Shown here piece by piece: positions 44,861-57,742 of a DNA stretch of 64,000 bases (position 1 is its first letter; every line of letters starts with the position of its first letter). The position numbers were made by a program, and so were the translations under genes. Below the pieces are notes generated by a model. It saw only the letters and a list, made by a program, of their open reading frames with translations, made no database searches and was not told the origin of the DNA. The stretch comes from Escherichia phage JP4: sequence record PQ330092; one strand, written 5' to 3'.

Positions 44861-45136
44861 ATGAATTATAAAGTTCTACAATATACATACAGTGTTTTGT
44901 TTGATTTACATCACAATGGAAGATATCTCAATACAATACGAGAAAACACATTCACTCATACTATCTGGATTAATCACTTAATAATGATACGTGAATATTT
45001 TGTTAATAGTGAGATAATCATTCGTGGTAAAAAACAGAAGATAGAACAAGTTAATAGTTTTGGTGGTAAATTAGTACTATCATTTATAGATAGTAATACT
45101 AATGAAAGATATAGTATAGATTTGGTGGATATATGA
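44861..45136 (+). CDS. family C paralog (tandem small protein)
   Basis: MNYKVLQYTYSVLFDL; GGGGAA SD. Confidence 0.7.
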   Translation: MNYKVLQYTYSVLFDLHHNGRYLNTIRENTFTHTIWINHLIMIREYFVNSEIIIRGKKQKIEQVNSFGGKLVLSFIDSNTNERYSIDLVDI

Positions 45137-45399
45137 ATTATAAAGATTTCCTACTAACATACAAGATTATTCGAGATTTAGCACACGACAATGATAGCCC
45201 TAGTCTAGAAGACACATGCACTCAAATGATTCATACGATTCGTGGTAAGATTAAAAAAAAATTCAGTACTGTTATTATTGGTGATGACCATGCAGAATTT
45301 TCTGATATAATCATTAGACGTGATGGTAAAGTTGAGGTTCAGTACTACACTGATTTTGGATTTACCAGTATTCCGTTGGAGATATTCCCTTGGGATTAA
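45133..45399 (+). CDS. family C paralog
   Basis: MNYKDFLLTYKIIRDL; ATGA overlap. Confidence 0.7.
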   Translation: MNYKDFLLTYKIIRDLAHDNDSPSLEDTCTQMIHTIRGKIKKKFSTVIIGDDHAEFSDIIIRRDGKVEVQYYTDFGFTSIPLEIFPWD

Positions 45400-45701
45400 A
45401 TTTAAATGATATACAATTCACTTATAAGATCCTATATGATTTGTATGATGTATACCTTGTTAGTAACAACATAGGTTCACATAACCGATCCAAAGAACAA
45501 CCATTTATTGATTTATATATTGAGTACTTAGATTCAGTAGGTGAATATATAAAAAAGAATTACAGTACTTTTATCGATGGAAATGATATATTCGAGTTCT
45601 CTGGAGTTAAATCATACAATGGGATTATCCATGTTGAATTTCTTGAAATAACCGATAGGGGATTTATCGAGATTAAAGTTGTGAAGTTGGTGAATTTATA
45701 A
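45390..45701 (+). CDS. family C paralog
   Basis: LNDIQFTYKILYDLY; apparent TTG start, no in-frame ATG nearby. Confidence 0.6.
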   Translation: MGLNLNDIQFTYKILYDLYDVYLVSNNIGSHNRSKEQPFIDLYIEYLDSVGEYIKKNYSTFIDGNDIFEFSGVKSYNGIIHVEFLEITDRGFIEIKVVKLVNL

Positions 45702-45711
45702 GAGGTTACAT

Positions 45712-46023
45712 ATGTTATTAAATGATATACAATTCACATACAAATTTTTGTATATCCAATACGCTACGGTTGATGCTGGAGAATATCTCTACAGTGAAAT
45801 CTATCGTTCGGTATGGATAAAGTTTTTGGATGAATTACATGAATATTACCATGATTTGTGTATAGTTCGTGATAATAAAATATACAAATTCCGCGATATT
45901 GTTAGTCATAGCGGTAAGCTACGATTGGAATTAAGTACTGATAGTGATGTTGATTGGATTGGTGTAAATTTACTGGAATTGAAGAATGAAAAACAACTTA
46001 AAGGAAATACAAGTATTTTATAA
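45712..46023 (+). CDS. family C paralog
   Basis: MLLNDIQFTYKFLYIQY. Confidence 0.7.
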   Translation: MLLNDIQFTYKFLYIQYATVDAGEYLYSEIYRSVWIKFLDELHEYYHDLCIVRDNKIYKFRDIVSHSGKLRLELSTDSDVDWIGVNLLELKNEKQLKGNTSIL

Positions 46024-46270
46024 ATTCTTATACTTATCATATGTAAAAGATGAGTACTATGAAAGTGTGTATTATTTTTTATGGCAACATTACCGTACTA
46101 TAGTAAGAGATTTATATATAGGAAAATCTATCATATCCAATGGTGAAAAATGTATCTGTACGGATGTAGTTAGTTTTAATGGTTCTTTAACACTGTGTTT
46201 CAGATGCGATAATAATAGTGGGTCATTTTCATTAAACGTATATCAGTTAGAAGGAATAAATTTTGAATAA
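45986..46270 (+). CDS. family C paralog
   Basis: LKEIQVFYKFLYLSY. Confidence 0.65.
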   Translation: MKNNLKEIQVFYKFLYLSYVKDEYYESVYYFLWQHYRTIVRDLYIGKSIISNGEKCICTDVVSFNGSLTLCFRCDNNSGSFSLNVYQLEGINFE

Positions 46271-46463
46271 ATGTCCATATTGTAACAGTACTCAATTAGC
46301 TCGTTTCCGTTTAGATTCAGACTGGGCGACTGGTGCTGGTGATTTCTTCCCTATTAATGATGATGCGGAATACACCGAAGAACAGCACAAAGATTTTGAT
46401 AAATCATGGCGACCTGACATTGAGTGCATTTATTGCCTTAATTGTGAGCGTGTTCATGACTAA
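46263..46463 (+). CDS. zinc-ribbon small protein (66 aa)
   Basis: CPYC ... CIYCLNC two Cys pairs. Confidence 0.65.
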   Translation: MNKCPYCNSTQLARFRLDSDWATGAGDFFPINDDAEYTEEQHKDFDKSWRPDIECIYCLNCERVHD

Positions 46464-46719
46464 AGCTGAACTAATAGTTCATACATATAAAATGATATCA
46501 AGTACTGAGTTATCATATAGTGCAGATAATCCAGTACTGGATTATTTTGTTGAATTATTGAAAGAGCATTATATTGGTAAATCACTGAATATTAATAATA
46601 TTAATTTCACTATAACGGATGTGGGACCAGGAAAAAACGTACTAATTGTATGTATTACTTCAACTGGTAACCCATTATACCCAATATCAGTAATTTTTGA
46701 GGTATTAGGTGATTTATGA
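46456..46719 (+). CDS. hypothetical protein (87 aa)
   Basis: start at ATG 46456 overlapping upstream stop; track start 46333 is nested out of frame. Confidence 0.6.
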   Translation: MTKAELIVHTYKMISSTELSYSADNPVLDYFVELLKEHYIGKSLNINNINFTITDVGPGKNVLIVCITSTGNPLYPISVIFEVLGDL

Positions 46720-47006
46720 ATATCATATTAATACAAAAAACATATGCTCTACTGATGAAAGAATATACTAATACTTATGATGAAAAGTGCAGTGCAAATC
46801 ATAATATGTATGAATTCATTACTCAAGAGTACAGGGATTATATATATGCTGTGTTAGTGGGTAGATATTTCAGTACTAGAAAATACCCAAAACTTCAAAT
46901 AGTTGATGTTTCTTTTTATTTCAATGGTCATATTACTATTCATAGTTTAGACCAAGATTCAACAACGTACTTAAACTTTTCATTTGATGAGGTAACATTT
47001 TTATGA
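46716..47006 (+). CDS. family C-like small protein
   Basis: MNIILIQKTYALLMKEY; ATGA overlap. Confidence 0.6.
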   Translation: MNIILIQKTYALLMKEYTNTYDEKCSANHNMYEFITQEYRDYIYAVLVGRYFSTRKYPKLQIVDVSFYFNGHITIHSLDQDSTTYLNFSFDEVTFL

Positions 47007-55923: not shown

Positions 55924-56252
55924 TGTCAATGAAACCACTAATTCAACATAATATTTTTTATAGGTCATTATTCAAAATTCAAGATGATTTTTATCAGACG
56001 TTGAGTAATGATCTTATAGGTAAAACTGTACGATATTCGGAACAATACATCAAACGTATGACAAGTCAGTATATTGACCCTGAATACGAATACGACATTG
56101 AACACATTAATCCCAATACTAGAATGAAAATCATTGAGATATTTAAGAATGGGAGAACTATAGGTGCTGAAATTGAGTACTTGAATTGTGATTGTTACAT
56201 AGATACAGAGTTGAGTTTGGATTATCTTGTTTTAGTGGATGATGAGGAATAA
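55923..56252 (+). CDS. family D paralog
   Basis: NDLIGKTVRYSEQY. Confidence 0.65.
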   Translation: MSMKPLIQHNIFYRSLFKIQDDFYQTLSNDLIGKTVRYSEQYIKRMTSQYIDPEYEYDIEHINPNTRMKIIEIFKNGRTIGAEIEYLNCDCYIDTELSLDYLVLVDDEE

Positions 56253-56254
56253 TT

Positions 56255-56470
56255 ATGATAACATTTTTTGCAATATATGGATTTGTAGCATTTGTTACAT
56301 TTATAACCAACTTTCTAGTACTCAATTGGGGTTGTTTTAAAGATGAAATCATGATTATCATGAATCTCCAAACAGCAGCACTGATGGCTATTATTTGGCC
56401 TATAACGTTAGTATATATTTTTATTTCACTTACCCAAGATATTATTAACAAATATAAGAGAAAGAAATAA
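56255..56470 (+). CDS. small membrane protein (71 aa)
   Basis: two hydrophobic segments; basic C-terminus KYKRKK. Confidence 0.6.
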   Translation: MITFFAIYGFVAFVTFITNFLVLNWGCFKDEIMIIMNLQTAALMAIIWPITLVYIFISLTQDIINKYKRKK

Positions 56471-56721
56471 TGTTCAACACTGACTTATCACATTTGCGAT
56501 ATCTTATGTCTTTGGCTGATGATTTTATAAATGATCTGAAGCCAAAATATATTGGTCAAGAAGTACGATTAATAAACTCCAGAGGGTATGGAAAGTATAT
56601 TATTACTGATATGTATATTAGTGGTGGTGAATGGCGTTTTAAAATTAATACTTATCTTAAAGATGGTTCTTTTGCTGGAACACAAGTTACTAAACACACT
56701 AATATTATATGGTTGGAGTAA
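56470..56721 (+). CDS. family D paralog
   Basis: NDLKPKYIGQEVRLIN. Confidence 0.65.
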   Translation: MFNTDLSHLRYLMSLADDFINDLKPKYIGQEVRLINSRGYGKYIITDMYISGGEWRFKINTYLKDGSFAGTQVTKHTNIIWLE

Positions 56722-56723
56722 TA

Positions 56724-57467
56724 ATGAAACACTTCTTAGAAGTAACCGTACCTGATGATAAAGATTTATACATTGTAGGTGATTTGCATGGTAATGGAAA
56801 ACTATGGGATGCTACAGTGAAAGAATTTGGTATTACACACAATGATTATGTTTTCAGTGTAGGTGATATTATCGACCGTGGAGAACAAAATTCAAAGCTC
56901 CTTTTTGAATTTTTGTTCGGAGAAAATCGTTACATGATTGCGGGTAATCATGAGATGATGTGCGTTGATTCGGAAACACTTCGAGATTGGTATCATTGCT
57001 GGATAAGTAATGGTGGTGATAAATTCCTTGATGAAGTTGGAGGAACAGGCATTCAATTCTTTCGTCAGTACTTAAAGGATCTCCCTATGATTATCCAAAT
57101 CAATCACCGAGGATTGAAGATTGGGTTAGTTCATGCTGGAGTTCCGTTGGAATATACAACATGGGAACGATTTGTTAATGGGACAAAATCACTTAGTGCT
57201 GATATAATTGATAAGTGCTTGTGGGATAGAAAAACATTCGATTATTGTAGAACTAATAATACATATTATGCACCTAAGTTAGATGGAGTGCATTGTGTCT
57301 TTAGTGGACATACAGCAGTTACAGATCCACTAATTTACGGTAATCGCATTTGGATTGATAGTCAGTTCTTGACGGGTGACTTAACTCTCGCTACTCCACA
57401 AAGTGGTGGAATGAGATACTTACGTAAAGAAAAAGATGAGTACTCATTCAATCGTTTCAAAAGGTAA
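56724..57467 (+). CDS. Ser/Thr protein phosphatase, PPP family (lambda-PPase-like)
   Basis: GDLHGN, GDIIDRGEQ, GNHE metallophosphatase motifs; TTGGAG SD then ATG 56724. Confidence 0.8.
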   Translation: MKHFLEVTVPDDKDLYIVGDLHGNGKLWDATVKEFGITHNDYVFSVGDIIDRGEQNSKLLFEFLFGENRYMIAGNHEMMCVDSETLRDWYHCWISNGGDKFLDEVGGTGIQFFRQYLKDLPMIIQINHRGLKIGLVHAGVPLEYTTWERFVNGTKSLSADIIDKCLWDRKTFDYCRTNNTYYAPKLDGVHCVFSGHTAVTDPLIYGNRIWIDSQFLTGDLTLATPQSGGMRYLRKEKDEYSFNRFKR

Positions 57468-57472
57468 TAATT

Positions 57473-57742
57473 ATGCATGATGTAGTTAAAAAATATTTGA
57501 ATGATAGATATATTATGAAAAAATCTATTAATTCTATCCTAAAAGATCATGCAAATCAAATACGTGAGATTCTATCAAATAAACTTATTGGTTGTTCAGT
57601 TGAGTTCAACTACAAAAAGAATGTCGTGAAGGTTGGAGTTATTAAACGTGTAGTTGCTGTTTATGACCAAAATGTATATGTTGAAATTGAATATGATGGT
57701 AAATTATCACAATTAAGTACTGAAGATTTAACATTTTTATAA
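57473..57742 (+). CDS. family D paralog
   Basis: SNKLIGCSVEFNYK. Confidence 0.6.
   Translation: MHDVVKKYLNDRYIMKKSINSILKDHANQIREILSNKLIGCSVEFNYKKNVVKVGVIKRVVAVYDQNVYVEIEYDGKLSQLSTEDLTFL

Follow-up and report, generated by a model that had tools for sequence, protein, structure and literature searches.

Two groups of small genes around the RNA-repair enzymes of an Asteriusvirus jumbo coliphage are probably branches of one fast-evolving superfamily

The stretch of Escherichia phage JP4 DNA analysed here (record PQ330092; 64,000 nucleotides, hereafter the window) is of the Asteriusvirus jumbo coliphage type (121Q/PBECO4 type), and 157 open reading frames (ORFs) were called in it, all on the + strand and covering 97% of its length. 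Our subject is a 13-kb region at 44861-57742, which shares 98-99% full-length DNA identity with BAU.Micro_ELP-22, UB, PBECO4, phAPEC6 and 121Q. Here small genes alternate with conserved enzyme genes, and upstream of these there is one gene for a Dam methylase and one for a cytidyltransferase. A first reading made from the letters alone (the sequence-only reading) had seen two further small-protein families in this region, next to families A and B elsewhere in the window: five tandem genes, family C, and a looser set dispersed between the enzyme genes, family D. We found that both are genuine groups, and that they are probably branches of one lineage-restricted superfamily rather than separate families; the window holds about 15 solid copies of it and 3 marginal ones (Table 1). 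Neither family had been described before, nor had their union or their fold.

All-against-all BLASTP of the window ORFs, with a cut-off of E<1e-3, joined the five tandem genes C1-C5 (44861-46270) in a single cluster (E 1e-4 to 1.6e-7, 24-30% identity), and the N-terminal motif ascribed to them was present in each (LQYTYSVLF, FLLTYKIIR, IQFTYKILY, IQFTYKFLY and IQVFYKFLY, respectively). The five genes thus stood as a family, but the count was too low, since the array holds six or seven genes. C6, with the motif IQKTYALLM, was recruited by one iteration of a hidden Markov model (HMM), and its membership was upheld by decoy-controlled jackhmmer with no decoy match. The possible seventh gene, at 46456-46719, is an intermediate, or bridge, that combines a C-like N-terminus (IVHTYKMIS) with a D motif (LKEHYIGKSL). 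In the array, the start of C2 overlaps the stop of C1 (ATGA), and the TTG start of C3 is as annotated in phAPEC6, whose gp387c has identical coordinates.

The clustering that recovered C, which the sequence-only reading had proposed as its check, was blind to D, for which profile tests were needed. BLASTP linked no D pair at E<1e-3, the best being 53527/56470 at E=0.01. Pairwise clustering, whether by BLASTP or by single-seed jackhmmer in the window, was therefore judged unfit for D, as it fails to recover this family and would wrongly reject it. Single-seed jackhmmer on a small pool also gave three decoy matches and was replaced by leave-out tests and decoy-controlled iterations. Motif counts by regular expression were dropped as either too loose or too strict, the strict D motif occurring only once. 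A first sequence pool was enlarged by the syntenic regions of RaK2, phage A4, Serratia BF and Erwinia Hallingskeid, and an HMM was built without each candidate and its close orthologs; the left-out protein was then scored against 216 other small proteins and 500 shuffles. The six genes at 52054, 53527, 53787, 55923, 56470 and 57473 each ranked 1-3 of 216, and none of the 500 shuffles scored as high. The sole 'null' protein that outscored these six was the RaK2 ortholog of 50143 (L002_19732_20004), which is the strongest match to the D profile (25-41 bits) and thereby ties 50143 to the family. We further found that the top 'null' match in every D leave-one-out test was the gene at 22556-22864. 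The final iterative searches stayed free of reversed and shuffled decoys. Together with confident structure models, these tests demonstrate that D is a true family, and all seven of its listed core members are supported. The two members that had been called possible, 48241 and 54330, turned out to be marginal, the latter being nearer to C; the positional counterpart of 48241 in phage A4 (33% identical) does match the D profile. A 100-aa ORF at 48567-48869 may be a further, more distant member of the superfamily: it matches a combined C+D HMM (E=1.4e-3, rank 5 of 227), and single-seed jackhmmer links it (E=4e-37) to RaK2 L002_25178_25480, which joins the C branch.

The relationship between the two groups emerged from a second pool, to which EC.P1, Turkey5 and PBECO4 were added, genomes carrying strongly diverged alleles. 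The final iteration (E at most 1e-3) covered 571 proteins and 1142 reversed or shuffled decoys. The D-seeded HMM reached 87 sequences with no decoy and took up C1, C4, C5, C6, the bridge at 46456, 48241 and 54031-54333, and the C-seeded one took up 54330. One Turkey5 protein, L007_4684_4968 (IEFTYRVLY), belongs unmistakably to C, with E=9e-22 against a C HMM from which it was left out, and it also matched the D-only HMM (E=2e-6, 24.5 bits), with residues 20-93 aligned, including "IKDYFIGKHVTI". A profile-profile comparison of C and D had been suggested as well, and with the enriched C-only and D-only profiles hhalign gave P=0.0025, or P=0.0043 when the Turkey5 protein was left out. Against families A and B the values were P=0.15-0.93, with alignments of 4 columns or fewer; on these values, and with no A or B member in the C or D iterations, membership of C/D in family A or B was rejected. 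The Turkey5 intermediate, the hhalign values and the common order of secondary-structure elements described below led us to revise the "two further families" to probable branches of one superfamily. Common ancestry of C and D is thus likely, though not proven.

One member of each branch was modelled with AlphaFold2 from the family alignments. The D model (56470) reached a predicted local distance difference test score (pLDDT) of 87.9, and the C4 model places helices at residues 3-19 and 25-46, strands at 49-53, 56-66, 69-75 and 82-86, a short helix, and a last strand at 94-97. Both show the same predicted element order, an N-terminal helix followed by a five-stranded unit. D is predicted to have one helix, C an extra first helix that bears the IQFTYKxLY motif, and the 'KYIGKxV' motif marks the junction of helix and strand 1. 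In the D model the five-stranded unit matches an SH3-like small beta-barrel, with five antiparallel strands of which the fourth and fifth are joined by a 3-10 or other short helical turn. The only conserved positions are those of the hydrophobic core and a single turn glycine; C has two invariant residues, Y10 and G69, and D has none. Neither alignment holds an invariant polar residue; hence no catalytic site is apparent. The proteins measure 83-109 aa and are soluble, and most are acidic (pI 4.1-5.9, net charge -2 to -12). No hydrophobic or transmembrane segment was seen in the members, and membrane or secreted proteins were rejected on this ground.

Table 1. Members of the C/D superfamily in the window, followed by the neighbouring enzyme genes. 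Bits, E values and ranks without further mention are from leave-out HMM tests; shuffles are out of 500.
Gene	Position	Strand	Length (aa)	Remarks	Support	Identity to EC.P1 / Turkey5 / A4 (%)
C1	44861-45136	+	91	first gene of the array	BLASTP cluster; C HMM 112 bits; phrog_32291, weakly phrog_21004; taken up by D-seeded search, 0 decoys	
C2	45133-45399	+	88		BLASTP to C3 E=1e-4; leave-group-out superfamily HMM E=8e-8, rank 0 of 231	
C3	45390-45701	+	103	TTG start	BLASTP to C4 E=1.6e-7; phrog_21004 E=1e-50	
C4	45712-46023	+	103	C member chosen for modelling	AlphaFold2 pLDDT 83.1; phrog_21004	
C5	45986-46270	+	94		BLASTP cluster; superfamily HMM without close C homologs E=3e-6, rank 0 of 231	100 / 32 / 96
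Bridge	46456-46719	+	87	intermediate	hhalign to C P=5.5e-4, to D P=2e-4; E=2e-5, rank 0 of 230	
C6	46716-47006	+	96		C HMM 110 bits; jackhmmer cluster, 0 decoys; phrog_28826	
D22556	22556-22864	+	102	D branch; among family B genes; missed by the sequence-only reading	23.4 bits, 0 shuffles; E=1e-5, rank 0 of 231	
D50143	50143-50406	+	87	directly upstream of rnlA, stop/start overlap	E=9e-6, rank 0	
D52054	52054-52365	+	103	directly upstream of pseT	19.5 bits, 0 shuffles; E=2e-5	99 / 31 / 38
D53527	53527-53787	+	86		BLASTP to 56470 E=0.01; 19.8 bits, 0 shuffles; E=6e-5, rank 0	
D53787	53787-54038	+	83		14.7 bits, 0 shuffles; E=3e-3, rank 6 of 231	
D55923	55923-56252	+	109	longer loop insertion	moderate: 13.9 bits, 0 shuffles; E=0.02, rank 9 of 231	43 / 29 / 32
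D56470	56470-56721	+	83	directly upstream of Ser/Thr phosphatase gene; D member chosen for modelling	25.5 bits, 0 shuffles	
D57473	57473-57742	+	89	directly downstream of phosphatase gene	18.0 bits, 0 shuffles; E=2e-6, rank 0	
48241	48241-48522	+	93	peripheral, uncertain	fails: 2.6 bits, E=0.08; late entry in D-seeded iteration	
54031	54031-54333	+	100	peripheral, uncertain	D-seeded iteration round 6, 0 decoys; E=0.02, rank 12 of 231	
54330	54330-54626	+	98	peripheral, uncertain; nearer C than D	6.4 bits as D (unsupported); C-seeded iteration round 3; E=0.04	
rnlA	50403-51545	+		RNA ligase RnlA		
pseT	52369-53301	+		polynucleotide kinase/phosphatase PseT		
Phosphatase	56709-57467	+		NinI-like Ser/Thr phosphatase		
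DNA ligase	59601-61019	+				

We then examined the distribution of the superfamily. Pfam gave no match for its members, and sequence searches of the PDB gave nothing significant. In PHROGs the window genes are each full-length members (E 1e-43 to 1e-62) of one of nine separate families of unknown function (phrog_21004, 32291, 28826, 28139, 31355, 29519, 33398, 37322 and 38615), and the link among these nine is new here. Profile searches of 5.8 billion proteins returned 22 matches for D and 36 for C, each of which came from one of these phages or from an E. coli assembly containing one. In a full HMMER scan, 1.84 billion representatives yielded 16 matches for D; three of them, long repeat lipoprotein-like proteins (P0064, P0068 and P0069), were spurious and share only an 'IANKLxNKTIxL' motif. 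No relatives outside the RaK2-like phages were found in these large database searches. The phAPEC6 orthologs are gp361c-gp389c. The published virion proteome of that phage skips in its list from gp347 to gp549 (PMC7247149) and includes none of them, and a structural role in the virion was rejected on that account.

Within the genus, the enzymes of the region are 74-99% identical at the amino-acid level, and C/D genes in the same slots 29-100%, with values of only 29-43% in some comparisons of sister phages (three examples in Table 1). The ratio of nonsynonymous to synonymous substitution rates (dN/dS) was 0.03-0.58 for C and D genes and 0.04-0.08 for the enzymes, which indicates coding genes under purifying selection that is relaxed or faster. 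C/D genes change several-fold faster than the neighbouring enzymes; they are genes of an expressed type under selection, and nothing else in this neighbourhood of otherwise conserved enzyme genes changes as fast. C6 shares 98% identity with its EC.P1 counterpart and only 77% with that of PBECO4, though PBECO4 is 98.5% identical overall, and this indicates allele exchange. The family expanded by tandem duplication, as seen in the C array, and also fills conserved slots among dam, the cytidyltransferase gene, rnlA, pseT, the phosphatase gene and the DNA ligase gene. Local islands of divergence were observed at 46716-47006 and at 45390-45701 (C3 is 86% identical to PBECO4), and synonymous divergence along the region ranges from about 0.03 to 1.4, a pattern that suggests recombination between phage lineages. 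A 66-aa CxxC...CxxC protein at 46263-46463, lying within the variable C array, is strongly conserved (95-98% identity in the genus, 71% in RaK2), unlike its fast-evolving neighbours.

Taken together, these findings incline us, with little more than even confidence, to view C and D as two branches of one lineage-restricted, fast-evolving helix-plus-barrel superfamily of what we infer to be non-enzymatic binding modules. A stable scaffold of helix and barrel would present variable surfaces, and each paralog might bind a different host or defence protein, or possibly an adjacent phage enzyme, most plausibly in the early or middle, host-takeover phase of infection. Because of the RNA-repair and phosphatase neighbourhood and the evolutionary pattern, a role in host takeover or counter-defence appears the most plausible; small size, acidity, fast evolution, allele exchange and the RNA-repair gene neighbourhood are indirect pointers to it. 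A scan for sigma-70 promoters gave counts not above shuffled expectation, and thus no information on timing; no Asteriusvirus transcriptome was found in the literature, where only the distant PA5oct has been profiled. A more far-reaching version, which we regard as speculative and rather doubtful, is that the superfamily forms a library of binders that diversifies on a single helix-plus-SH3-like scaffold; every paralog or allele would neutralise its own host or defence factor, and alleles would be traded between co-infecting Asteriusvirus strains. If so, the gene block would amount to a compact store of counter-defence proteins still to be discovered.

Several points weigh against this view. 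Paralogs are mixed in the alignments behind the models; a Foldseek search of viral models had no match at E<1e-3; and three members (44861, 56470 and 57473) are basic (pI 8-9), so that the properties are not uniform. Most of the case for joining C and D comes from a single intermediate sequence and from a profile-profile P value that is modest. On the smaller pool used first, moreover, hhalign of C against D gave P=0.079, and the strict decoy-controlled iterations left the two unmerged. Both results, like the separation of all members into distinct families in PHROGs, favour the reading that C and D are independent and alike only through convergence or the generic architecture of short helix-plus-sheet proteins in an AT-rich genome. 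We consider such independence unlikely, since the Turkey5 C member matches the D-only HMM over 74 residues, the enriched profiles agree far better with each other than with A or B (0.15 or higher) from the same genome, the gene at 46456 matches both branches, and the two models agree in the order of their elements.

A barrel of the SH3, KOW or Sm type might also point to nucleic-acid-binding proteins, for example RNA chaperones or MotB-like modulators of DNA or transcription, and the three basic members would suit this reading, as would weak Foldseek matches, at E about 0.1, to entries labelled T4-type MotB or 'transcriptional regulator'. We nevertheless hold it to be very unlikely, because most members are acidic, Pfam matches to KOW, Sm or Tudor are absent, and conserved basic patch residues are lacking. 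The MotB match, from Foldseek against BFVD, had E=0.12 and a template modelling (TM) score of 0.45 and was accompanied by no MotB sequence match. Ten members gave no Pfam match to the KOW domain (NusG/Spt5/L24) at E up to 1, and neither Sm1/Sm2 motifs nor a structural match to Hfq or Sm identified an Sm/Hfq (LSm) protein. With regard to the aromatic cage of the Tudor and chromo domains, the 'royal family' of methyl-lysine readers, no invariant aromatic residue of the barrel was found in the C or D alignments. In comparison with SH3-like barrels (Tudor, chromo, KOW, R67 dihydrofolate reductase, the C-terminal Tudor of PcrA/UvrD and the RNA polymerase-interacting domain of CarD), to which the Pfam and PDB sequence searches gave no link, the present family differs in the long N-terminal helix (two in C) ahead of the barrel and in the acidity of most members, and no conserved aromatic cage or KOW glycine motif was found in it.

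The positions of D genes directly beside rnlA, pseT and the phosphatase gene raise another alternative, namely that the D-branch proteins serve the flanking enzymes as dedicated accessory subunits, whether as adaptors, as regulators or as chaperones. Stop/start overlaps or gaps of 3-5 nt occur at 50143/rnlA, 52054/pseT, 56470/phosphatase and phosphatase/57473, and family members hold the enzyme-adjacent slots in all Asteriusvirus genomes examined (EC.P1, Turkey5 and A4 among them) and in part in more distant phages, upstream of rnlA and pseT in RaK2 and downstream of the phosphatase gene in Hallingskeid. Tight packing with overlapping stops is, however, the rule genome-wide. In Turkey5 or A4 the slot occupants reach only 31-57% identity, against 74-89% for the enzymes, which is not expected of co-evolving subunits. 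Most members, the whole C array included, do not lie beside an enzyme gene, and in Serratia phage BF no member could be detected at these slots. We therefore give this alternative little credence. That D is no family and shares composition only, which the sequence-only reading had named as its refutation, is largely refuted itself: the unlinked BLASTP pairs, the single strict motif and a few decoys in permissive single-seed jackhmmer runs would favour it, but the leave-one-group-out ranks among 216 real small proteins of the same genomes, the absence of any shuffle among 500 reaching member scores, the decoy-free final searches and the confident D model speak clearly against it.

Tandem duplication is already on record for 121Q, where an array of >30 similar genes was described (PMC5646251); this array is family A here, with 32 members. 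Window positions 3117-9474, plus 10775-11223 and 23821-24208, are the region referred to that 2017 paper (PMC5646251). Bacillus phage G carries a roughly 35-copy zinc-ribbon expansion (tandem jumbo-phage arrays: PMC5646251, PMC7824862), and RaK2 was reported with about 10% paralogues (PMC3622015). Like these arrays, the superfamily reflects lineage-specific tandem duplication of small ORFan genes, a proposed route of genome enlargement. Unlike them, C and D are far more divergent among themselves and partly dispersed, and they are unrelated in sequence to A (the 121Q array) or B (hhalign P of 0.15 or higher). The region also resembles the hyperplastic regions of T4-like phages (PMC4122927), where blocks of small, variable and mostly unannotated genes lie between core genes such as rnlA and pseT and alleles or modules are shuffled between related phages; it differs in that many of its variable genes fall into one structural superfamily and are not unrelated ORFans. 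In 350-kb coliphages of this group, a known function is lacking for about 83% of the genes (PMC7247149), and some of these phages are under characterisation for phage therapy. Some 18 'hypothetical' genes of one variable block probably share one scaffold, so that what was a list of ORFans becomes a single family open to testing, and the family marks where determinants of host range or counter-defence may lie. It offers a concrete case for jumbo genomes growing partly by duplication of small genes and reveals no new kind of system.

With regard to the window as a whole, it had been stated that more than 100 of its ~160 genes belong to four paralog groups. This figure was not reached: family A (32 members by jackhmmer clustering), family B (41) and C and D together (18) account for 91 of the 157 ORFs. 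The count for B includes a 192-aa protein at 48877-49455, inside the region studied here, which matches the family B HMM with 0 decoys; the other B genes lie at 9.4-38 kb.

Some minor observations were made in and beside the region. At 47166-47444 lies a copy, broken by a frameshift, of a 92-aa gene whose reading frame is intact in PBECO4 (gp136) and phage A4. One G has been lost from a G run near 47280 (CTGGGG to CTGGG), which accounts for an apparent 314-bp 'gap' between 47179 and 47493; either the copy is a pseudogene, or the homopolymer was misread in sequencing. Strong terminator-like hairpins with T runs were seen on the + strand at 48529-48548, directly after 48241-48522, and at 53305-53331, after pseT, and may be boundaries of transcription units within the gene block. 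The 209-aa protein at 55294-55923 begins with a hydrophobic segment, is rich in lysine in its middle part and ends in an acidic tail rich in serine, and its identity among sister phages is low (39-61%). At 57753-57980, a 75-aa protein carries a pair of zinc-finger motifs of the CxxCxGxG type; in Pfam it resembles Anti-TRAP (E=2e-7) and the central domain of DnaJ (E=2e-5), in both cases under the gathering cut-offs, and its ortholog in phage A4 is annotated as a putative DnaJ-like chaperone.

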